Positions 48,411 to 60,210 of a stretch of 64,000 nt of DNA are shown here, piece after piece. The notes under the pieces were generated by a model. It worked only from the letters and a program-made list of their open reading frames with translations, ran no database searches and had not been told where the DNA came from. Position numbers and translations under genes: made by a program. This DNA comes from a virus. Its lineage: Duplodnaviria; Caudoviricetes. The stretch lies in the IMG/VR virus record IMGVR_UViG_3300038525_000015, positions 1 through 64,000 of that record. One strand, written 5' to 3'. How positions within the stretch are numbered: position 1 is the first letter of the stretch; each line of letters begins with the position of its first letter.

Positions 48411-49445
48411 ATGGGAAGACGACCGACAAAGCCGGGCGCGATCGCTCGGCTCAGGGAGCGCCGCAAGCCCAGCGGCAAGGTGTATTACTACTACGACGCT
48501 GGCGGGAAGCCTCGCCGGGAAATCCCGCTGGGCAGCGACTACGGCATGGCCATCGTCAAATACGCCGAGCTCGAGCGCGACCGGACGGCGGACGGCATTC
48601 GCCAGGCGGTGATCACCTTCGCCTACGTCGCGGACCAGTACCTGATCGAGATCGTGCCCACCAAGGCGCCGGGCACCCAGGACAAGAACAAGCAAGAGCT
48701 GGCCCGTCTCAAGGAGTTTTTTTGCGACCCGCCTGCGCCGCTGGAGGCCATCCAGCCGCAGCACGTCAAGCAGTACCTGCGTTGGCGGAAAAGCGCGCCG
48801 GTATCCGCGAACCGCGAGAAGGCGCTGTTGTCGGCCATCTGGAATTACGCCCGCGAAGCTGGATATACCGCGCTGGCCAACCCCTGCGCCGGGGTCAAAG
48901 GCAACAAGGAGAAAGGCCGCGTCAACGTATACATCGAGGACAGCATGTTCCAGGCAGTCTACCAGGTGGGATGCGCCGGCTTGCGGGATGCCATGGACCT
49001 GGCCTACCTGACCGGCCAGCGCGTTGGCGACACCCTGCGCATGGATGAGCGCGACATCCGAGACGGACACATCGCGATCACCCAGGCCAAGACCAAGGCG
49101 AAACGGCGAATCGAGATTGCCGGGGAACTGGCCGCGCTGGTCGAGAGGATCAAGGCGCGGAAGGCGGGTCACAAGGTCCGCTCAACGCGGCTGGTTGTGA
49201 CAGAGGACGGCGCACCCATGACGGCGGCGATGCTGCGGGGCAGGTTCGACAAGGCCAGGGAGGCTGCCGGAATCCCGAAAGCTGAATTCCAGTTCCGCGA
49301 CCTACGGGCCAAGGCCGGCACCGACAAGGCGGAATCGAGCGGCGACATCATGCAGGCTCGCGATCAGCTCGGGCACACCAGCGTGGTGATGACCGAGCAG
49401 TACATCCGCGAGCGTCGAGGGAAAAAGGTCTCGCCAACGCGGTAA
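48411..49445 (+). CDS. int: Tyrosine integrase
   Basis: TGQRVGD, FRDLRAKA, LGHTSVVMTEQY catalytic motifs; next to the att repeat. Confidence 0.95.
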   Translation: MGRRPTKPGAIARLRERRKPSGKVYYYYDAGGKPRREIPLGSDYGMAIVKYAELERDRTADGIRQAVITFAYVADQYLIEIVPTKAPGTQDKNKQELARLKEFFCDPPAPLEAIQPQHVKQYLRWRKSAPVSANREKALLSAIWNYAREAGYTALANPCAGVKGNKEKGRVNVYIEDSMFQAVYQVGCAGLRDAMDLAYLTGQRVGDTLRMDERDIRDGHIAITQAKTKAKRRIEIAGELAALVERIKARKAGHKVRSTRLVVTEDGAPMTAAMLRGRFDKAREAAGIPKAEFQFRDLRAKAGTDKAESSGDIMQARDQLGHTSVVMTEQYIRERRGKKVSPTR

Positions 49446-51207: not shown

Positions 51208-54200
51208 TCACTCCCTCGCGCGAGCCTCCTCGATCCGCTTCCCTGCCCTCTCGGTCAGCCGGCTCTTGATGGCCTGCAACCGATCCAGCTCCCGCCGCTT
51301 GCGCTCGCCGTCCCAGTCGCTGCGGCGCACCATATCCATGCGGGCATTGATGCCGCTGAGTTGCTTCTGCACCTCAGCCAGCGGTTTACGCATTGCCAGC
51401 ACCTGCCGCTTCTCCTGAACCAACTCCCTCGCTTCATCCTTACGCCCCAGCTCCTGGAGACGCTTCGCGTCGGCATACACCCGCCCGGATTCTTTCAGGC
51501 CTTCATAGAACAGCGTGCTGTAGCGGTCATACGGCGCCGGCGCGCCCAGGTCGCGGTAGAACCGCCGGATCGGCTGGTACTCGTGCCAATGCTTCGCCGG
51601 CTCGCTCTCGCCGCCCGCTGCGCGCCAGACCGTATCAGTGATGCCGGCGCCCCAAGCGCCAACCTGACCGAGGTAGCCCCTGATCAGGTGATCGGCCTGC
51701 AGCGACGAGAGTGCGAATTCTTCGCCCAGCACTGCGGTGGCCGAGGAAATCGCTTTCGCCGGCGCAGTGCTGCTCGCTCGATCGCGCAGGGTTGGGCTCA
51801 CTTTCTCCATCCCGGCGCTCTCGATAGGCCGGCCGGTGAAAGCATCCCTGTTCGAGTACACATCCAGCGCTGGCTGGAACATCTGCGGCACCGGACTGAA
51901 GCTGAACGTTTGGGTGAGCATCGCCCACAGCCGCTCGCGAAACAGCTTGCCGCTGGCCTTGTCGTCGACTGCCTGTTCAGCCAGACGCTCCACCAGCGTG
52001 GAAATGGCACCCACCTCGAACGGCTTGGGCAGGAAGAAGGCGTTATCCCCGACGCGGAAGAACCAGAAGCTGTCCTTCTGCCAGTCCTCGAGCTTGCGGT
52101 ACTCCTCGTCGTCATGGTTCGCCAGGAAAAGCGCCAAGCTGGCCAGCGCCAGCGCACCGGTCACCGCGGCGAACCGGGCGGCCGCCACCTTGTCGCTGTT
52201 GGTGCCCTTGCCGAAGGCAACCTTGACCGCCGGCTTGAAGCCCGAGCGATACAGTTTGTCGAGGCCCTGCAGGCGAGCATTTAGAAATGGCACAACGCGA
52301 ATCAGGAAGCGCACCGCCGGCCAGGCGCCTTCCTGGCTGAAGTCCATCAGATCGCGCGCCTCGTAGGCGGCGCGCAGCGCACCCTTGTCCTTGTTCTGCA
52401 GGAAAGCCGCCGCCCGATTGGCGTTTTCGGCGGTGTTAGCCGCCTCGTTGTAGGCGTCCCAGCCGGCCACCAGCAGCTTCGGCACCAGGGCGGGAGCGTC
52501 CAGCAGCTTCGCGCCGCGCAGGGAGCGCTTGAGCCCGGCCTTCACCTCCTCGGGATCCGCACCGTAGATATGCCCGAAGCTGAATGCACCACCACTGGCC
52601 AGCATCTGCGCCCTGGTCTTCTGATCGCGGAAGGACTTCAGGCCCTGAAACATGTTCGCTGGCACGTTCTTGCTCACCGGCGTGGTGGCGGCGGCCTGCA
52701 TCGAGTCGCGCAGGAAGTTGGCGATGATGAACTGCGGCGTGATGGTGGTCATGTTGGTGAACACCCGCTTGAACTTGGCCATGGTGCGCACGGCGAAGTT
52801 GTTGAGCCCCGGGTCGGCCAGCGAGCTCAACGCCTCGAACACCAGGGCATCGTCCACCTCGTACCAGACCTTATCGCCCTTCTCCAGAACGAAGGTGCTG
52901 GTCTTGGGATCGCGTGCTGCCTCTGGGACCTTCCGCGCAATCTGCAGGCGCTCAGCGTTGGCGATGGTTTGCGCCGCGGCCTGGTTCTTCAGGCTGGCCG
53001 TCAGCAGGTGGTGGAAGTTCATCAGGGTGTTTTCCAGCAGGTCATTCAGATTCTGCTTCCCGCCCTTGAGCTTCTTGTACGCCTCCTGCCGACTCAGCCC
53101 CTTGGACGAAACCGGGCCCTTCGCCTTGGCCTCTTCATCCATGACCCGATAGAACGGGACGTAGAACTCGTCCCGCCACATGGCACGGTTCTCGGAGCTG
53201 ATAATGCCGGTCTGCTCAGCAATGGCCAGCACGTCGTCGCGGTACTGCTGGAACTCCTTGAAGACCTCATCGTAAAGCGATGCACGGGTGCGGCCGTCTT
53301 CAGTGACACCCCTGTTGATCCCTTTCAGCGCCTCGATGTCCTGGGCGGTGAACAGGTTTTCCCTGCCCTCTGCCGCGAGCTTGGCCGCCCGATTGCCGGC
53401 CACCCAGCCGAAGAAGCGCTCGATTTCCTTCGCATCCCCAAGCCGGCCCAGCACTTCACCCAGACCCATACTGCCGTCTTCGCGCATGCCGATCACTTTC
53501 TGCTGCGGATCGAGGACGATGCGGCCGTTGTGCATCATGGCGTTGAGCGCACCGGCGGCCGCCGGCGCCATGCGGGCCAGTACCCAGGCGCTGCTGGTGA
53601 TCGAAGTGTCGAGGAAGTCGAGGCCGTGAGCCTTCTCGTCGAGTTCCTTCAAGGCGGCGTAGCGATCGACCAGGCCCTGGCGGATCTTGGTCATAGCGCG
53701 GTCGGCGCGCTCGCGGAACCAGAGCGTTGCGCGCTGGCGAGCAGTCGGGGGAGCGATCTTGCCCAGCGCATCGCGCTCGGCCTGGCTGAGATCGGCGAAA
53801 GCTTCGGAAACGTGGGGGCGCGTCGACCGCAGCGAGTAGCGGGTGTCTTCGGAGGGGTCTACAGGTGCTTCAGTTCCGGATCGATCGCCAGTTGCTGCTT
53901 GGCCCACTCGGAAGAGGCCTTCATCTCGCGCCGCAGAGATTCGATCTCGGATTTCGTCAGGCGATAGTTGCCCTTTGTCGAACGTGAGGAGGGTTCGAGC
54001 TTCGGACTGGGTGAGCCCTTCGAAGCCATAACCGAAGGTTTCACGCCACCAGGGTTCGATATCGCTGTACTTGCCACGGACTTGCGCCAAGGTGTCGGGA
54101 TCAATCGCAAGTTTCCGTGAGTAGTTCTTGCCGGTCAAGGCAAGCGCTGCCAGCACCTGGCCGCCGTTGTCCTCGATGTGCGTCTTCAACTGCGCCAGAG

Positions 54201-57200
54201 TTCCACCCTGGGTCAGGGTGTCGTCGAGGAGCAGGTACTCAGCGGCGACCACGCCACCATCGAAGGTCGGCTGATTGGCAATGCGCTCCAGAGCATTTGA
54301 CTGGGTCCGACCAACCTTCTGCGCCTGCATCACATTGGTGTCGGTCTCCAAGCCCAGGCGCTGCGCCAGCACCTCGGCAGCCATCAGCGGAATCCGATTG
54401 TCCCCCGCACCCTCGCGCGCCAGCACCGGCACGATGCGCGGCAAGCTGCCCTCCGGAATCAGCGCTCGCACCCGCTCGATGAACTCCGGCGTTACAGCAT
54501 CGCGGGCGACGCGCAGCGCGGCCGCGTCGTCGCCGGCCTTGGCTGCGGCGTAGTCGGGGTGGTTGTTCAGGAAGCTCAGGGGGTGCGCCAGCACCGTATC
54601 GGGGAAATCCGCCGCCCAGCCTCGACGGGAGTAGAGCTGGTCGGAACCAGACAGGTTCGCGCGCTGCGCACGCAGCCAGTCCCGCGACTGCTCGATCAGG
54701 GCCAGCACGTCGGTGTAGGTCCAGTTCACCTGGGGGAACAGCTTGCGCAGCAACTCGCGGATCTTCGACGCCACACGCTGAAGCACGGTCGGTCGGTCGC
54801 CCGACTCGGCCAAGTGGGCAATGATCTCCTCGGCAATCAGCAGGCGCTGCTCCGCTGCGCTCTTGCCTTGGAGCACGGCGGCGTAGTGCTCGCGGATCTG
54901 CGCCACCCGCTGCCGGCCGGTGGTGCGGGCCATCTCGCTGGAATAGATGCGTTCCAGCGTGCCGTCGAGCTGATCACCCAGCAGGCCGCGAATGCCCTGG
55001 TGGCCAACCATCTCGTGCACCGCGGTGCGGATGGCTTCTTCCAGATCCTGCTGGTTGTCGGCGACCAGGTACTGCGCATCCGGCCGAAACACACCGCGGA
55101 CATCATGGGACCGCACACCATCACGCTCAGCGCGGATTCGCACCGACAGAGGCAAGTCGCCAAAGGCCTGCACCACTTGGATGCTTGCTAGCTCAGGATG
55201 CTTATCGATCTCCGTTTGGATTTCCACCGCCGACACCTGGCCACGGCCGTCTAGGCGGTACATTTGGACGCCACTATCCGTCTCGCGCGTTTCGATGATG
55301 CCGAAGAGCTCATCAAACGCAGCACGCACTGAAGGGAGCTCTGCAGCTGTTAGGTAGGGGTAACGATCCGGGTCGCTGTATGCCGTCTCCGATACGATAT
55401 TCGCCAGGTAATCGCTGCTAATACCAGCGTCCTGCAGCTTGGCTATGACATGGCTTTCGAAGGCGCGAGCCGACATTTCCAGCGCCGTTGACCAGTAATC
55501 CTTGCTGCGTGTTGCGTCTAATTGCTCGGAACGCTTCTGCAAGTCTGTCGCCCTGAGCGCACTCATCAGACGACTGAAGGCTTCGATGAGCTCGGGGCGT
55601 ACACCCTCACCGCGCTTGTAAGGCCGCTCAGTGAGATAAGCATCCGGCTGACTTCTGGCCCGACTGAGGTAGTTGTCGAAGGCATGCCACCACTCATGCG
55701 CCAGCGAGCCAGCACCGTTCCCCTTGGTCAGGTTAATGACAGTCTCGCCCGACTCGTAATGCGCTTTTGCCGGGTCAGGCCCACCTCTACCACGCGCACC
55801 GAACGCTAAAGCGAGCTCTCCATTGAGCGACAGAGCCTTGGCCGGGATGTTCAAGATGCCGGCCAAATCACTCAGCGCGTCGAATGCTTCGTTGAGCTCT
55901 TGCTGCCGACGGTTGTTTTCAACGTAGTTGCCAAACTGCACACCACGAAAACCGAAGGTCTCGCTGAACAGCTCGGGGGTAACATCCTGGCCATTCCGGT
56001 AGTCGACCCCAACCCGAGGCGCGTTGCCTTCACCTCGGTGCGCGGGCACCTCTTTTAGCGCGTCGTACTGCCTTTCTAGCGAACTCTGATTTTCGCCCAG
56101 ATACTTGCGTGCCTCTGCCAAGCTGTCGAACGATCGAAGCCGCGCAACGCGCTTGCCATTTTTTTTCCCAATGAAATAGCCGCGCTCGCCACGCTGAGAG
56201 AACACATCGAAGCGGATGGCGTTGTCGGCTTTTTTCTTCACAGACTCGAGCTTGGCATGTACCTCCGCAAAGGCGTCCAAGGCTTCCTGCTTGGTGTTAC
56301 CGGAGGCCAATTCTTGCGGCCAATTACTCAGCGCCGTAGCTTTTGCATCCTTGCTGGCAATCCATTTATTGACGTTTTTCTCGCCTCGATACATCGAGAA
56401 ATAGCGCTCGGCGAACGTAATGCCCTTGAGCGAATGCGCATGTCCAAAGCGCTGATACAACTCCACCCGGCCAGCCAGACCGCGCAACGCGGGGTGGTCG
56501 TCGTAGAGGCTTGAGCGAACCTCTTCGGTGAGTTCGCCGTGATCCAAAATCCGGCGCGTCGCATTGCGCAAAAGATCAACCTGGTCAGCCCACCGACTCA
56601 GCTTGTATGGATTGCTGGGTTTGGTGGGCACCTCATCTCGGGCAGCATGTGCAAAAGCAACCGCCCAACGGTCACCACCCTGATCCAGAAGTGCCTGATA
56701 GTCCGGTTCAGGCCAAGACTTAGACAGCGGTACCGCTTTCACGTCCGCTTGCATCGCCACGTCGAGCTGCTGCGTATAGGACGAAAACTTGCGCGCGCCC
56801 TCGATTCGCTCTCCGAAGTCGTCGATCTTCTTTGTTGGCTTGGGTGTAGCGGCTGGTTTTTCGGCGACTACCTGCTTGGCCGGCAGAGTGTGTTCCACTT
56901 GGTCGCGCTTGGCGGGAGCGTTGCGCTCCGCGCCCGATGCCAGTTTTTGCTCAGCTGAAGAGCCGGAGGAGGTGTCGCTTACGCGGTCGGTTGCTGCAGG
57001 GCCTGCTTCGCTTGCCGACGAGCCAGGCGCTCCTGCGTCGCTTGCTCGATGCGCGCCTGCAGCTCGTTCTGGCGCCTTTCCAGCTCCACTGGATCGCTGG
57101 TCCCGAAGTGCTCGATCGCTCGTTGGAGCCTGGCTTCCGCTGACATGCTGGGTACCTTTTTTGCTCTGATCCATCGCCCTATCGGCGGCGTTCATGACAT

Positions 57201-60200
57201 CCGCAGAAGTGAGGCCTGCTTCGATCGGGGAAACCCCCAGATGCAGCCCCACGCCACGTTTGGACTCGTCGTCAGGATGCTTCGGGTGGACGATCTTGTC
57301 CAGCCCTTCCCGGCGCGTGTAGGCCTTGGCGGCCGCCTGGCCACGCTCCAGGGCCGCCTCGACTGCCGCTCGCTCGCCGCCAATCACCAGCACGCCGAAC
57401 TCGTCGCCGCCGGTGCGGAAGCCTTCGACATGGCCGACCGCGCCCAGCTCCTTGCGCACGATGTCCGCCAGCGCCCGGTAGTGCTTGTTGGCGTCCCGAG
57501 CCACGTTGTTGAAATGCGCGTTCAGTCCACCCAGGTTAGCGATGTCGGCGCTCACCCAGTACGCCTCGCCGTCGGTGGCGGCCACGTACTCGATGGCTCG
57601 GCCAATGGCGCGCTCAGTGTCAGTGCTGCCGTCTTCCGCTTCGCGCCGGCCCTCGAACAGTCCGGTGGTGGCATCGATGGGTGCGGAGAAGCGCGACTTG
57701 CTGGCCAGGCGCTCGGCCACGTCCGGGGCCACGCCGTCGGCGATGTACTCGTCGATAACGGCCTGGCGGTAGGAGTCCGCATAGGGCGTATAGCCAGCAG
57801 CCGGCCCCTGCTCGGCGCGCCCTGCCTGGGCGAGATCCTGGGCCGGCTTGGTCAGGTCTCCCTTGAGCCAGCGCTTGAACTGCTCGACCGGCATGGCCGT
57901 GACCTCGCCCACCTTCCAGTCCGGATCGAAGTTGGAACGGTAGGCCTCCACCGCCGCGGCCTGGTCGGGATAGCCCAGCATCACCTTGTGCTCATCGAAG
58001 CTGCCATCCTGCTGGTGGAGCTGGTCAACGATGAACACCTGGTCGCTGTCTTCCTGCGGCCCTAGGTACACGTCGACCTGCTCTTGGTCGGCGCCAACGG
58101 TGCGCTTGATGTAGCCGTAGTGATCGCTCATGGTGTGACGCCACTCGGTACCATCCGGGCGCTTGCCGCTGCGCTCGGAGCCGCGCGGATTCTCAACAGC
58201 GATATCCAGGCCGGCGACGCGCACATGCCCCTTGCGGTAGTTGCCGGTCTCAATCTGCGCCGGCGTGGGCGCCGGCAGGTCGTTGTTCGGGGAGGTGGCC
58301 GCCTGATCTGCCTGTTGGTCGATCGGACGTGCCGGACGCAACGGCTGCGGTTCCTGCTGCTTGGGCACTGCAACGGCCCAGCCATCACCGTGGCGCACGA
58401 TCTGCGGCTGCTCGCCAGCCTTCGCCGCCTCGCGATACAGGAGGCTCGCGCGCGCATCGCCGCGCCCCTGGAACGGCTTGCCGTTCTTGCGCAGCCGAAT
58501 TTCCAGATCCGGCGCGCCGCTGGCGTCAGCAGTTGGAGCGTGCTGGTCCATCCCGCGCCCGCCCGGCAGCGGCCGTTCGGGATTCGGAGCCACGAACGGC
58601 CCGGTCGGCCCCCGCTGAGCATTGCCCTGGCTATCCACCACGATGCTATCCGGGGCGGGCAGTGCCTGGCGCTCCGGTGCGGCGTCGACCGTGGCAGGCT
58701 CCGCGGCTGCGCGCCCAGGTGCCGCCGGCCGACTGCCATACTGGAACTCGCCAGCCAACGGCGCCGGTTCGCCTCGCGGGGTCGGCTGATCCATACCCGG
58801 CCCACCGGGCATGCGCTCCGGATCGTTCTGCGGATTGACCCACTGGCGTGCCTGCAGATCCGGCCGCTGCTCGCCGTCCACGTTGCGCACCGGCCCGGTG
58901 TCTTGCACGTTGCCTTGGCTGTCGGCATAGAAGACCTTCTCGGGCGCCGGCAGTGCCTGGTGCTCAGGTGCCGGCAAAGCGCCGGGCTCGGGGGTGTTCT
59001 CGAAGGTGGCTTCGGGGGTCGCGAGATCCTGGGCTGCAGCGCTAGCAGGCCTGACGCGCGGCGTGGCCACCGCACCCAGCCCCCCACCCATAACAGCGCC
59101 AGTGGCGAGGCCGCCAAGCCCTGCGTTCAGCACGCCAGCGCCAAGCTTTCGATTCGGGTCGGCGTCCTGCATGGCGTAGTTCTCTGCCACCTGCTGCCCA
59201 ATCGACTGCGGCAGCTCTTCCAGCAGGCCTTCGCCAACCGCGCCCTTGGCGATACGCCCGCCGATACCCGCTGTCACCCTGCCAGTCAGCAGGTTGGCCA
59301 GCGCACGGTCGCCCATGCCGCCGAAAACACCCGTGGCCGCGCCAGCTATGAGCAGGCCTTGGGTGGCAGAGTCCTCAGCCAGTTGCGCCCGCGCTTCCTC
59401 CGGCTTAAGCCCCTCTTCCAGCAGCGTCTGAAACGCCTCGGACTGCTGCAGTTGCTCCAGCGGCATGGCGGCGATCTGGTCGCGCACCTGGCGCGCCGTG
59501 TCCGCTCCGCCCAGCAAGCCCTCGGAAACGCCGCCGGCCACGGTCGCCATGCGTGCGGCGGCCTTCGCCGCCACTGCTTTATCCCCCGTCTTGGCCAGCG
59601 CGCGAGCATAGGCGCCCTTGGCCAGCCGGCCCGCCGCGCCCATGGTGATGGCCATCTCCGGCAGCGACTGGATGATGCCGCTGGCGTAGGCGCGCGGATC
59701 AGTCCAGGCCGAGCCGAGCGAACCGGTTTCCTCATCCCACCACAACTTCTGCTGCGCGCCACGCATCTCGGGGGTCAGGTTCTGCTGGTACTTCTGCTCG
59801 TTTTCCCGCAGCAGCGTTTCGGAGTCCTTGCCCGACAGGAAGCGGTCGGCGGCATCACCCGCCGCCAGCAACCCTTCGCCCACCACCGGGATGCGCCCCA
59901 CCAGCTCGCGCACGTTCTGCGCCGCGCGGTTGACGCCTGCTGCCAGGAGGTTGCCTGTGTCGGTGAGCAGATTGCCGCTTTCCGGGGATTCCGCATCAGC
60001 CCCAAGGGTCGACCGACCAAGCGTGCTCTGCGTGTCCTGGTCGAACAGCTCGCGGGCACGCGGCTCCATGCCTGCTGGAACCCGAGGCATAACCACTTCT
60101 TGGAAGTAGAGTTCGCGAGCACGCTCTTGGCGTTCGGGCGCCAGCGCGCGGAATTGCTCGCTGGCAGCCACCTCCGCCCAGCGGCGGGGTTGGCGGGTTT

Positions 60201-60210
60201 CGTTCTGCAT
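51208..60210 (-). CDS. 3000-aa large polyvalent virion (ejection-type) protein
   Basis: Domains N to C: Gly-rich hydrophobic region; ALPAP repeats; pyrophosphatase-like (about 58275-57865); GGDEF (about 57690-57150); LPD5-like; LPD1-like with HEWWH; second zincin HEMVGH; PRTase (LLDDTLTQGGT); LPD38-like C-terminus. Confidence 0.88.
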   Translation of the reverse strand: MQNETRQPRRWAEVAASEQFRALAPERQERARELYFQEVVMPRVPAGMEPRARELFDQDTQSTLGRSTLGADAESPESGNLLTDTGNLLAAGVNRAAQNVRELVGRIPVVGEGLLAAGDAADRFLSGKDSETLLRENEQKYQQNLTPEMRGAQQKLWWDEETGSLGSAWTDPRAYASGIIQSLPEMAITMGAAGRLAKGAYARALAKTGDKAVAAKAAARMATVAGGVSEGLLGGADTARQVRDQIAAMPLEQLQQSEAFQTLLEEGLKPEEARAQLAEDSATQGLLIAGAATGVFGGMGDRALANLLTGRVTAGIGGRIAKGAVGEGLLEELPQSIGQQVAENYAMQDADPNRKLGAGVLNAGLGGLATGAVMGGGLGAVATPRVRPASAAAQDLATPEATFENTPEPGALPAPEHQALPAPEKVFYADSQGNVQDTGPVRNVDGEQRPDLQARQWVNPQNDPERMPGGPGMDQPTPRGEPAPLAGEFQYGSRPAAPGRAAAEPATVDAAPERQALPAPDSIVVDSQGNAQRGPTGPFVAPNPERPLPGGRGMDQHAPTADASGAPDLEIRLRKNGKPFQGRGDARASLLYREAAKAGEQPQIVRHGDGWAVAVPKQQEPQPLRPARPIDQQADQAATSPNNDLPAPTPAQIETGNYRKGHVRVAGLDIAVENPRGSERSGKRPDGTEWRHTMSDHYGYIKRTVGADQEQVDVYLGPQEDSDQVFIVDQLHQQDGSFDEHKVMLGYPDQAAAVEAYRSNFDPDWKVGEVTAMPVEQFKRWLKGDLTKPAQDLAQAGRAEQGPAAGYTPYADSYRQAVIDEYIADGVAPDVAERLASKSRFSAPIDATTGLFEGRREAEDGSTDTERAIGRAIEYVAATDGEAYWVSADIANLGGLNAHFNNVARDANKHYRALADIVRKELGAVGHVEGFRTGGDEFGVLVIGGERAAVEAALERGQAAAKAYTRREGLDKIVHPKHPDDESKRGVGLHLGVSPIEAGLTSADVMNAADRAMDQSKKGTQHVSGSQAPTSDRALRDQRSSGAGKAPERAAGAHRASDAGAPGSSASEAGPAATDRVSDTSSGSSAEQKLASGAERNAPAKRDQVEHTLPAKQVVAEKPAATPKPTKKIDDFGERIEGARKFSSYTQQLDVAMQADVKAVPLSKSWPEPDYQALLDQGGDRWAVAFAHAARDEVPTKPSNPYKLSRWADQVDLLRNATRRILDHGELTEEVRSSLYDDHPALRGLAGRVELYQRFGHAHSLKGITFAERYFSMYRGEKNVNKWIASKDAKATALSNWPQELASGNTKQEALDAFAEVHAKLESVKKKADNAIRFDVFSQRGERGYFIGKKNGKRVARLRSFDSLAEARKYLGENQSSLERQYDALKEVPAHRGEGNAPRVGVDYRNGQDVTPELFSETFGFRGVQFGNYVENNRRQQELNEAFDALSDLAGILNIPAKALSLNGELALAFGARGRGGPDPAKAHYESGETVINLTKGNGAGSLAHEWWHAFDNYLSRARSQPDAYLTERPYKRGEGVRPELIEAFSRLMSALRATDLQKRSEQLDATRSKDYWSTALEMSARAFESHVIAKLQDAGISSDYLANIVSETAYSDPDRYPYLTAAELPSVRAAFDELFGIIETRETDSGVQMYRLDGRGQVSAVEIQTEIDKHPELASIQVVQAFGDLPLSVRIRAERDGVRSHDVRGVFRPDAQYLVADNQQDLEEAIRTAVHEMVGHQGIRGLLGDQLDGTLERIYSSEMARTTGRQRVAQIREHYAAVLQGKSAAEQRLLIAEEIIAHLAESGDRPTVLQRVASKIRELLRKLFPQVNWTYTDVLALIEQSRDWLRAQRANLSGSDQLYSRRGWAADFPDTVLAHPLSFLNNHPDYAAAKAGDDAAALRVARDAVTPEFIERVRALIPEGSLPRIVPVLAREGAGDNRIPLMAAEVLAQRLGLETDTNVMQAQKVGRTQSNALERIANQPTFDGGVVAAEYLLLDDTLTQGGTLAQLKTHIEDNGGQVLAALALTGKNYSRKLAIDPDTLAQVRGKYSDIEPWWRETFGYGFEGLTQSEARTLLTFDKGQLSPDEIRDRISAARDEGLFRVGQAATGDRSGTEAPVDPSEDTRYSLRSTRPHVSEAFADLSQAERDALGKIAPPTARQRATLWFRERADRAMTKIRQGLVDRYAALKELDEKAHGLDFLDTSITSSAWVLARMAPAAAGALNAMMHNGRIVLDPQQKVIGMREDGSMGLGEVLGRLGDAKEIERFFGWVAGNRAAKLAAEGRENLFTAQDIEALKGINRGVTEDGRTRASLYDEVFKEFQQYRDDVLAIAEQTGIISSENRAMWRDEFYVPFYRVMDEEAKAKGPVSSKGLSRQEAYKKLKGGKQNLNDLLENTLMNFHHLLTASLKNQAAAQTIANAERLQIARKVPEAARDPKTSTFVLEKGDKVWYEVDDALVFEALSSLADPGLNNFAVRTMAKFKRVFTNMTTITPQFIIANFLRDSMQAAATTPVSKNVPANMFQGLKSFRDQKTRAQMLASGGAFSFGHIYGADPEEVKAGLKRSLRGAKLLDAPALVPKLLVAGWDAYNEAANTAENANRAAAFLQNKDKGALRAAYEARDLMDFSQEGAWPAVRFLIRVVPFLNARLQGLDKLYRSGFKPAVKVAFGKGTNSDKVAAARFAAVTGALALASLALFLANHDDEEYRKLEDWQKDSFWFFRVGDNAFFLPKPFEVGAISTLVERLAEQAVDDKASGKLFRERLWAMLTQTFSFSPVPQMFQPALDVYSNRDAFTGRPIESAGMEKVSPTLRDRASSTAPAKAISSATAVLGEEFALSSLQADHLIRGYLGQVGAWGAGITDTVWRAAGGESEPAKHWHEYQPIRRFYRDLGAPAPYDRYSTLFYEGLKESGRVYADAKRLQELGRKDEARELVQEKRQVLAMRKPLAEVQKQLSGINARMDMVRRSDWDGERKRRELDRLQAIKSRLTERAGKRIEEARARE
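53859..54029 (-). CDS. Nested +1-frame ORF over the end of the PRTase domain (56 aa)
   Basis: MASKG...NYRLTKSEIESLRREMKASSEWAKQQLAIDPELKHL; host-like codons in the +1 frame; start and RBS uncertain. Confidence 0.5.
   Translation of the reverse strand: MASKGSPSPKLEPSSRSTKGNYRLTKSEIESLRREMKASSEWAKQQLAIDPELKHL
56979..57146 (-). CDS. Nested +1-frame ORF directly after the GGDEF domain (55 aa, not in the ORF track)
   Basis: AAAGGT SD 7 nt before ATG; MSAEARLQRAIEHFGTSDPVELERRQNELQARIEQATQERLARRQAKQALQQPTA. Confidence 0.6.
   Translation of the reverse strand: MSAEARLQRAIEHFGTSDPVELERRQNELQARIEQATQERLARRQAKQALQQPTA

Follow-up and report, generated by a model that had tools for sequence, protein, structure and literature searches.

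GGDEF domains in the polyvalent proteins of phages and prophages have been catalogued computationally by Iyer, Burroughs, Anand, de Souza and Aravind (2017, J Bacteriol), with the Acetonema longum protein WP_004096050.1 as an example, and the sections of that study devoted to them describe these domains as "not very widespread" and treat them as makers of cyclic di-GMP (c-di-GMP) or cyclic di-AMP (c-di-AMP) (PMC5512222). The same sections describe polyvalent proteins with phosphoribosyltransferase (PRTase) domains, present InPase and LPD38 as phage-only domains, and propose a nucleotide-centred conflict role for polyvalent proteins (PMC5512222). Experimental follow-up of these GGDEF domains was not found in the literature. 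Among characterised GGDEF enzymes, a "Goldilocks" rule has been formulated, according to which the Ser/Thr (Hypr) enzymes strictly carry a GGDE motif while the Asp-type cyclases divide between D and E in a 57:43 ratio (PMC6456294). Here we describe a GGDEF-fold nucleotide cyclase domain (57154-57750, minus strand) encoded within a giant gene (51208-60210, minus strand) of the virus record IMGVR_UViG_3300038525_000015 (Duplodnaviria; Caudoviricetes), of which positions 1 to 64,000 form the 64,000-nucleotide stretch analysed in this study, hereafter the window. This domain, which comprises core residues 845-1019 (57154-57678) and a short N-terminal helical lead (residues 821-844), is probably a catalytically competent dinucleotide cyclase module free of product inhibition, carried by the giant polyvalent protein of a temperate short-tailed phage of the Bcep22/933W type, and most likely packaged in the virion and released with the DNA into the next host.

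An initial annotation, made by eye from the sequence, had recognised a GGDEF-type cyclase in this gene. All the motifs it quoted can be read from the minus strand in the translated open reading frame (ORF) 51208-60210: IDATTGL at residues 845-851 (57658-57678), SADIAN, which contains the putative metal-binding Asp889, GGDEF at residues 934-938, exactly at 57397-57411, and LHLGVS and ADRAM..SKKG, ending at Lys1017. The family relationship emerged from a profile built on 18 short family members, which matches the solved cyclases DgcB, DosC, SadC, PleD and WspR over the whole domain (best E=5e-8); a search of the PDB with the single cyclase domain sequence had returned only spurious BMC-domain matches, so that the family profile was needed. 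The AlphaFold2 model of the domain, computed from the alignment of the same 18 members, reached a predicted local distance difference test (pLDDT) of 88.9 and a predicted template-modelling score (pTM) of 0.82. When this model was compared with the PDB using Foldseek, the top matches listed were all GGDEF-domain structures, mostly diguanylate cyclases, with a probability of 1.00 and a template-modelling score (TM-score) on the target of up to 0.80. No Cas10, mCpol or class III cyclase appeared among these top matches, and the profile hits were likewise all GGDEF proteins. The assignment of the GGDEF fold is secure, with a similarity far beyond chance, and the profile search, the structural model, the Foldseek comparison and the residue alignment agree on a GGDEF-type cyclase domain with its catalytic residues intact, which confirms the first observation.

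The active site was examined on an alignment of 187 domain copies of the family, whose positions were mapped through profile alignments to solved cyclases. Asp889 (57544-57546, minus strand) aligns with the first Asp of the DID motif and corresponds to the metal-binding Asp327 of PleD, an Asp being found there in 162 of the 187 copies. The GGDEF catalytic hairpin (residues 934-938; 57397-57411, minus strand) is similarly well kept, with each Gly present in 174 to 182 copies, the Asp in 162 and the Glu in 166. It is preceded by Arg932, the conserved Arg of cyclases (180/187), and followed by Lys1017, equivalent to the phosphate-binding Lys442 (159/187). Asn897 (57520-57522, minus strand) corresponds in the profile alignment to the sugar-edge guanine contact of PleD, Asn335, and is an Asn in 180 copies. 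Numbered along the family alignment, the columns D69, N77, R112, G114, G115, D116, E117 and K197 are each conserved at 85-97%, and Asp69, the GG pair and the DE pair are all kept in 108 of the 112 single-copy family members. This retention suggests purifying selection on catalysis in the family, catalysis itself being predicted from sequence.

Around this conserved core, the domain displays a signature of its own. The usual FKxxNDxxGH stretch is here NLGGLNAHFNN, a family-specific DIxNLGGLN replacing DxFKxxND. A His975-Pro-Lys977 loop (57280-57288, minus strand; His in 163, Pro in 134 and Lys in 171 of the 187 copies) sits where canonical cyclases have strand beta-4 and has no counterpart in the solved cyclases aligned; its His and Lys columns (H155 and K157) are invariant in the alignment of the short family members. 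The motif is GGDE and never GGEE, the central residue being Asp in 162 copies and Glu in none of the 187. Finally, the RxxD inhibitory site (I-site), expected at positions -9 to -6 from GGDEF, reads V-G-H-V here and was found in a single one of the 187 copies, the site thus being missing family-wide. The absence of an I-site claimed by the initial annotation therefore holds, and extends to the family; its description of the cyclase as unregulated is not supported in that form, as the lack of regulation would follow from that absence alone, and a small conserved ORF lying behind the domain could encode a regulator.

The second peculiarity lies in the base-reading pocket. Asn908 (57487-57489, minus strand) occupies the position of PleD Asp344, which contacts the Watson-Crick edge of guanine, and in each of the three printed alignments of the profile to solved cyclases the Ala-Asn pair that ends at residue 908 stands opposite the Gly-Asp of GDxxL, in agreement with the earlier by-eye alignment of ANKHY with this motif. 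Asp906 was considered as an alternative equivalent of Asp344 that would restore a canonical pocket, and was rejected: its column is unconserved (G/A/K), and the conserved pair is A87-N88. Replacement of the guanine-reading Asp is thus verified, and the question becomes what it entails. At this position the family holds 140 Asn and 43 Asp among the 187 copies (75% and 23%), with only one Ser and one Thr, and the small clade that includes the domain of the window is entirely of the Asn type. On a FastTree tree of 158 catalytically intact copies, from which the Asn/Asp column itself had been left out, the Asn/Asp label requires at least 23 changes, at least 9 of which are forced by well-supported branches, compared with a mean of 33 for shuffled labels, and no other signature change accompanies the swaps. 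The pattern suggests a position that is tolerated or readily toggled rather than one fixed shift in specificity. Since Asn and Asp have interchanged at least 9 to 23 times, Asn908 does not by itself imply a new product; the earlier claim that a changed base-specificity residue would yield a signal other than c-di-GMP is upheld for the residue and not for the product, all the more as Asn is not the Ser/Thr of Hypr enzymes. No published assay of an Asn-type GGDEF domain was found. As a rough partition, c-di-GMP or another guanine-containing product is the leading expectation, somewhat short of an even chance; a hybrid or other purine dinucleotide is possible at a lower level, inactivity is improbable, and a linear or other product more improbable still.

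The family to which this domain belongs is large and mostly confined to giant proteins. A HMMER search of 1.84 billion representative proteins retrieved at least 395 clusters, defined at 50% identity, at E<=1e-3, and 241 at E<=1e-10, most members being proteins of 1,000-7,800 residues, including giant proteins of Sinorhizobium and mycobacteria. With tblastn, the cyclase domain had no match in 50,697 deposited phage genomes or in 72,556 PLSDB plasmids. Ordinary stand-alone GGDEF proteins do occur in a few cultured phages. A search for related loci among representative genomes brought up ordinary cellular GGDEF genes alone, matched by their FRTGGDEF pattern, and was uninformative.

Two tandem copies of the domain occur in 37 of the 149 proteins of the family: 12 of them retain two intact copies, and in the other 25 exactly one copy has lost its metal-binding and catalytic residues, with base-contact residues nonetheless kept in 22 of the 25 dead copies; such a pair with one dead copy resembles, from its sequence, a built-in pseudo-heterodimer. 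The domains fused to the cyclase in relatives include InPase, NUDIX, Acb1, ART-PolyVal, RadC, Fic, MuF_C, LPD37/38/39 and a HopBF1-type kinase. In one relative of 4,196 residues (P0012), a tandem GGDEF-like pair is directly followed, within residues 1975-2762, by an Acb1 phosphodiesterase domain (PF23474, E=4e-17) directed against the cyclic oligonucleotide-based antiphage signalling system (CBASS). The same protein also carries a HopBF1-type kinase, and two others (P0007 and P0008) combine NUDIX and a tandem pair in one polypeptide. This company would fit a nucleotide-centred conflict role, of which architecture alone is no proof. InPase was considered as an obligatory partner of the domain and rejected, being adjacent in only ~5 of 150 relatives in a single-sequence search.

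The protein that carries the domain in the window is a single ORF of 3,000 residues, identified from the ORF list and its translation, and resembles the DarB-like giants of other phages. Its N-terminal conserved domain (residues ~77-355; 59146-59982, minus strand) matches these giants by tblastn, with 44-52% identity and E values from 1e-44 to 1e-66 to Parlo, PEp14, BcepMigl, JC1, BcepIL02, Bcep22 and PBC5. An InPase domain, i.e. a polyvalent-type inorganic pyrophosphatase (residues 651-783; 57862-58260, minus strand; PF18823, E=1.6e-54, 183.9 bits), ends ~60 residues upstream of the cyclase domain. Further downstream, a PRTase-like domain (54124-54438, minus strand) bears the phosphoribosyl pyrophosphate (PRPP)-loop motif LLLDDTLTQGGT at residue 1992 and weakly matches adenine phosphoribosyltransferases (E=3e-4, phmmer against the PDB), and an LPD38 domain (51574-52110, minus strand; PF18857, E=2.4e-40) lies beyond it. 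The Pfam domains detected are InPase, LPD5, LPD1 and LPD38, and at least three modules handle nucleotides (InPase, GGDEF and PRTase-like). With several unrelated effector domains, among them the phage-only LPD38 and InPase, the giant protein belongs, on its domain content, with the phage-type polyvalent proteins of Iyer et al. (2017). It also holds two HExxH motifs on the minus strand, HEWWH at residue 1505 (55684-55698) and HEMVGH at residue 1732 (55000-55017), both outside the Pfam-matched LPD5 and LPD1 ranges, which may represent zincin-like processing peptidases of the kind that Iyer et al. propose for polyvalent proteins.

The genomic context points to the virion. The source record spans 81 kb and contains two prophage-like modules in tandem. 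The first (1-49.4 kb), a siphovirus, encodes a tape measure, a major head protein, a portal and a terminase, and ends at an integrase gene (48411-49445). The second, which starts at ~50 kb and runs to 80979 of the record, is a 933W/Bcep22-like podophage with its own portal/adaptor and large terminase in a late operon encoded entirely on the minus strand. In this operon the large terminase, the portal/adaptor, the tail fibres and a 933W-like internal virion protein (phrog_511) are followed downstream, on the same strand, by the giant gene, with which the series of large genes in this late/structural operon ends. Two relatives on other contigs (L017 and L021) show the same layout, the giant gene being followed by small opposite-strand genes and a lysis cassette. 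Among the DarB-like giants, JC1 gp69 was detected by mass spectrometry in virions purified on cesium chloride, and mass spectrometry on Bcep22 virions has also been reported (PMC9144972). Because the giant protein of the window shares both the N-terminal domain and the gene position of these proteins, and JC1 gp69 was found in virions, it is very probably virion-borne itself, as the initial annotation had assumed in placing the cyclase inside a virion protein, and its delivery by the virion is, by analogy, a well-supported inference. The head and terminase genes share ~77-84% DNA identity with the Pseudomonas phages PS-1 and PseuP_222, and a pseudomonad host is weakly suggested by sequence. 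In two close relatives (L017, 9459-9800; L020, 1458-1799), the position directly upstream of the polyvalent gene is taken by a small opposite-strand gene with an Imm_superinfect domain (PF14373), of which the window showed no equivalent at the corresponding place.

Directly behind the cyclase domain, the gene appears to be overprinted. An ORF of 55 codons in the +1 frame (56979-57146, minus strand) starts 9 codons after Lys1017, on the linker that follows the domain, and over its length the third-position G+C content (GC3) of the main frame is down to 0.45, compared with 0.77 on average for the gene. All seven relatives with readable DNA, including some that are only ~40-52% identical in the cyclase domain and have quite different downstream domains, keep this ORF together with its ATG, the purine-rich stretch located 6-9 nt upstream and an N-terminus reading MSxEAR(L/H)xR. 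The +1 frame is also better conserved than the main-frame linker, with a summed BLOSUM62 score of 812 versus 522 and the lead in 11 of 15 pairs. A +1 frameshift on an A6 run, which would fuse the small ORF to the domain, was considered and judged unlikely: the run is missing in six of the seven relatives, which makes independent initiation likelier than frameshifting, and the ATG and the purine-rich stretch are kept. The small ORF had no Pfam match. Its linkage to the cyclase module suggests, speculatively, a candidate partner or inhibitor that may regulate the enzyme. If expressed, it would represent a case of gene overprinting tied to one enzyme module, as well as a candidate regulator of that module.

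Taken together, we propose that the giant protein would enter the cytoplasm of the next host together with the phage DNA, where two copies of the cyclase domain could come together, perhaps once the giant protein has been cleaved. Each would bind one purine nucleoside triphosphate through Asn897, Asn908, Arg932 and Lys1017, with Mg2+ held on Asp889 and on Asp936/Glu937, and the paired domains would produce a cyclic dinucleotide with 3',5' linkages, c-di-GMP or a hybrid containing guanine being the likeliest outcome. With no I-site, synthesis would escape feedback, and the adjoining pyrophosphatase could clear the pyrophosphate released. The purpose would be to rewire the second-messenger signalling or the nucleotide-based immunity of the host early in infection; the more precise uses put forward initially, namely switching off motility or pili or jamming immunity, are speculation, their sole supporting context being the fusions of relatives to Acb1, NUDIX and InPase. 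If the domain is active, infection would deliver the phage's own second-messenger synthase to the cell ahead of all phage gene expression, a direct viral input into c-di-GMP or cyclic-dinucleotide signalling, on which CBASS and Panoptes-type defences also rely.

Several observations weigh against this proposal. The single sequence stays below the cut-offs of the reference models (PF00990: 20.3 bits for the cyclase domain and 14.3 bits for the whole protein, versus 23.8; TIGR00254: 19.7 bits for the cyclase domain, versus 37.4), so standard annotation would miss the domain, although some relatives pass the PF00990 threshold (P0049, 41.9 bits; P0004, 31.6 bits; P0028, 26.1 bits). The second phosphate-binding residue, PleD Arg446, is replaced by Gln1021, in a column that is not conserved in the family, and the guanine-reading Asp344 by Asn908. 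In the protein of the window the domain is present once, no coiled-coil stalk is evident, and pairing would have to involve another molecule. The giant gene belongs to a late operon, and its enzyme could act in the producing cell instead of after injection. In addition, biochemical or proteomic data on this protein or its family were not found in the literature. The loss of the Arg446 equivalent and the lack of an evident dimerisation element would both suit a single-copy domain that is catalytically inactive and serves as a nucleotide-binding or structural module, or that makes only a linear dinucleotide, and the 25 of 37 tandem relatives with one dead copy, 22 of which keep its base contacts, indicate that non-catalytic nucleotide binding does occur in the family. 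With all metal-binding and catalytic residues intact both here and in the 108 of 112 single-copy relatives, we nevertheless regard this explanation as quite improbable. An action within the producer itself, at a late stage of infection or during lysogeny, where for example a rise in c-di-GMP would alter the cell surface, the biofilm state or the susceptibility to superinfection and the location in a virion protein would be incidental, draws on the same late-operon position, by which the enzyme would be made in the infected cell before packaging, and on the reported control of phage receptors by c-di-GMP in some hosts (PMC8669472). Members of the domain family are however almost all parts of giant polyvalent or effector proteins and not free phage genes, the passages of Iyer et al. 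on polyvalent architectures interpret them as delivered cargo (PMC5512222), and the conserved overprinted ORF could, speculatively, encode an inhibitor that silences the domain in the producer; we hold such an action to be unlikely.

The more substantial alternative, in line with the initial annotation, concerns the product. Asn908, the remodelled NLGGLN helix and the His-Pro-Lys loop may together direct synthesis towards another molecule, such as 3',3'-cGAMP (cyclic GMP-AMP), c-di-AMP, or a dinucleotide of mixed or decoy type, aimed at CBASS or Panoptes-type guards and not at c-di-GMP physiology. Asn908 replaces the Asp that enforces GTP specificity, its carboxamide could in principle pair with adenine or guanine, and the change to Asp in the Hypr enzyme GacA (S348D) turns it into a pure diguanylate cyclase (PMC6456294). 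The restriction of the family to GGDE, with no GGEE among 187 copies, is also that of Hypr enzymes and departs from the mixed motifs of the Asp type (PMC6456294), and relatives place the domain beside Acb1 and NUDIX. Conversely, characterised Hypr enzymes have Ser or Thr and not Asn, the repeated Asn/Asp swaps without other signature change suggest functional equivalence, the other guanine contact (Asn335 in PleD) is fully kept, and an immune signal, once made, would as a rule switch host effectors on instead of jamming them. We thus consider a different product as a tentative possibility only. A bolder combination, in which the injected Asn-type lineage with its remodelled purine pocket makes a non-c-di-GMP or mixed dinucleotide on entry to manipulate nucleotide-based immunity, for example by refilling a Panoptes decoy pool or pre-loading host receptors, and in which the ~55-residue overprinted peptide is a dedicated inhibitor or partner that silences the cyclase in the producer, appears doubtful. 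The delivered, product-uninhibited cyclase of the polyvalent protein remains our preferred explanation.

Among known systems, the DarB-like virion proteins (Bcep22 gp75, JC1 gp69, BcepIL02, Parlo gp81) share with the carrier protein the homologous N-terminal domain (44-52% identity), a gene placed last in the morphogenesis module, and structural genes of the 933W-like kind. By contrast, the cargo of these proteins consists of transglycosylase, methylase and helicase domains, and the cyclase module was found by tblastn in none of the cultured relatives. The minimal cyclases OptS/mCpol of Panoptes offer a conceptual parallel, as palm-domain synthases of cyclic dinucleotides used constitutively in phage-host conflict (PMC12657218); unlike the module described here, the Panoptes cyclase is host-encoded, nearly devoid of a GGDEF motif and makes 2',3'-c-di-AMP (PMC12657218).

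At the level of the domain, canonical diguanylate cyclases (PleD, 1w25/2v0n; WspR, 3bre/3i5b; DgcB, 6tts/6ttr; PF00990) share the fold, with a TM-score of up to 0.8 on the target, together with the GGDEF hairpin, the metal-binding Asp, the Asn335 equivalent, the Arg that precedes GG and the Lys that binds phosphate. Identity to them is nonetheless limited to 14-24%, and the domain differs by the changes of Asp344 to Asn and of Arg446 to Gln, by the missing RxxD I-site, by DIxNLGGLN in place of DxFKxxND and the His-Pro-Lys loop in place of beta-4, and by the absence of a sensor or REC domain and of a stalk helix. The Hypr GGDEF enzymes (GacA/GSU1658, PDB 5VS9/6D9M; Bd0367) have in common with it the replacement of the guanine-reading Asp and a motif that is strictly GGDE[F]. 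Nevertheless, the domain has Asn instead of Ser/Thr and lacks the REC domain, and the Hypr structure 6d9m was an ordinary mid-rank fold match (rank 23 in Foldseek); the domain is not a Hypr member.

The closest precedent is the set of polyvalent GGDEF proteins of Iyer et al., which are likewise giant multidomain proteins of phages or prophages with InPase, PRTase, LPD and zincin-like modules and a predicted delivery on invasion (PMC5512222). One relative of the window's domain (P0005) even has the GGDEF-methylase-helicase-ART order of the Acetonema protein, a likeness of domain order that leaves subfamily membership aside (PMC5512222). The general idea of GGDEF domains in polyvalent proteins was therefore already published in 2017, and the value of the present locus lies in specific, testable details and not in a new concept. 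Asn at the Asp344 position, the NLGGLN and His-Pro-Lys signatures, the restriction to GGDE, the tandem pairs with one dead copy and the overprinted ORF do not figure in the sections of that account dealing with these domains (PMC5512222). What appears to be new is the residue signature shared across the family, the quantification of the Asn/Asp interchange, the figures on one-dead tandem pairs, the fusion to Acb1 and the conserved overprinted ORF. Beyond this precedent, the family provides natural experiments, with Asn and Asp variants of the base-reading position, tandem pairs with a single dead member, and domains joined to Acb1, NUDIX and pyrophosphatase modules.

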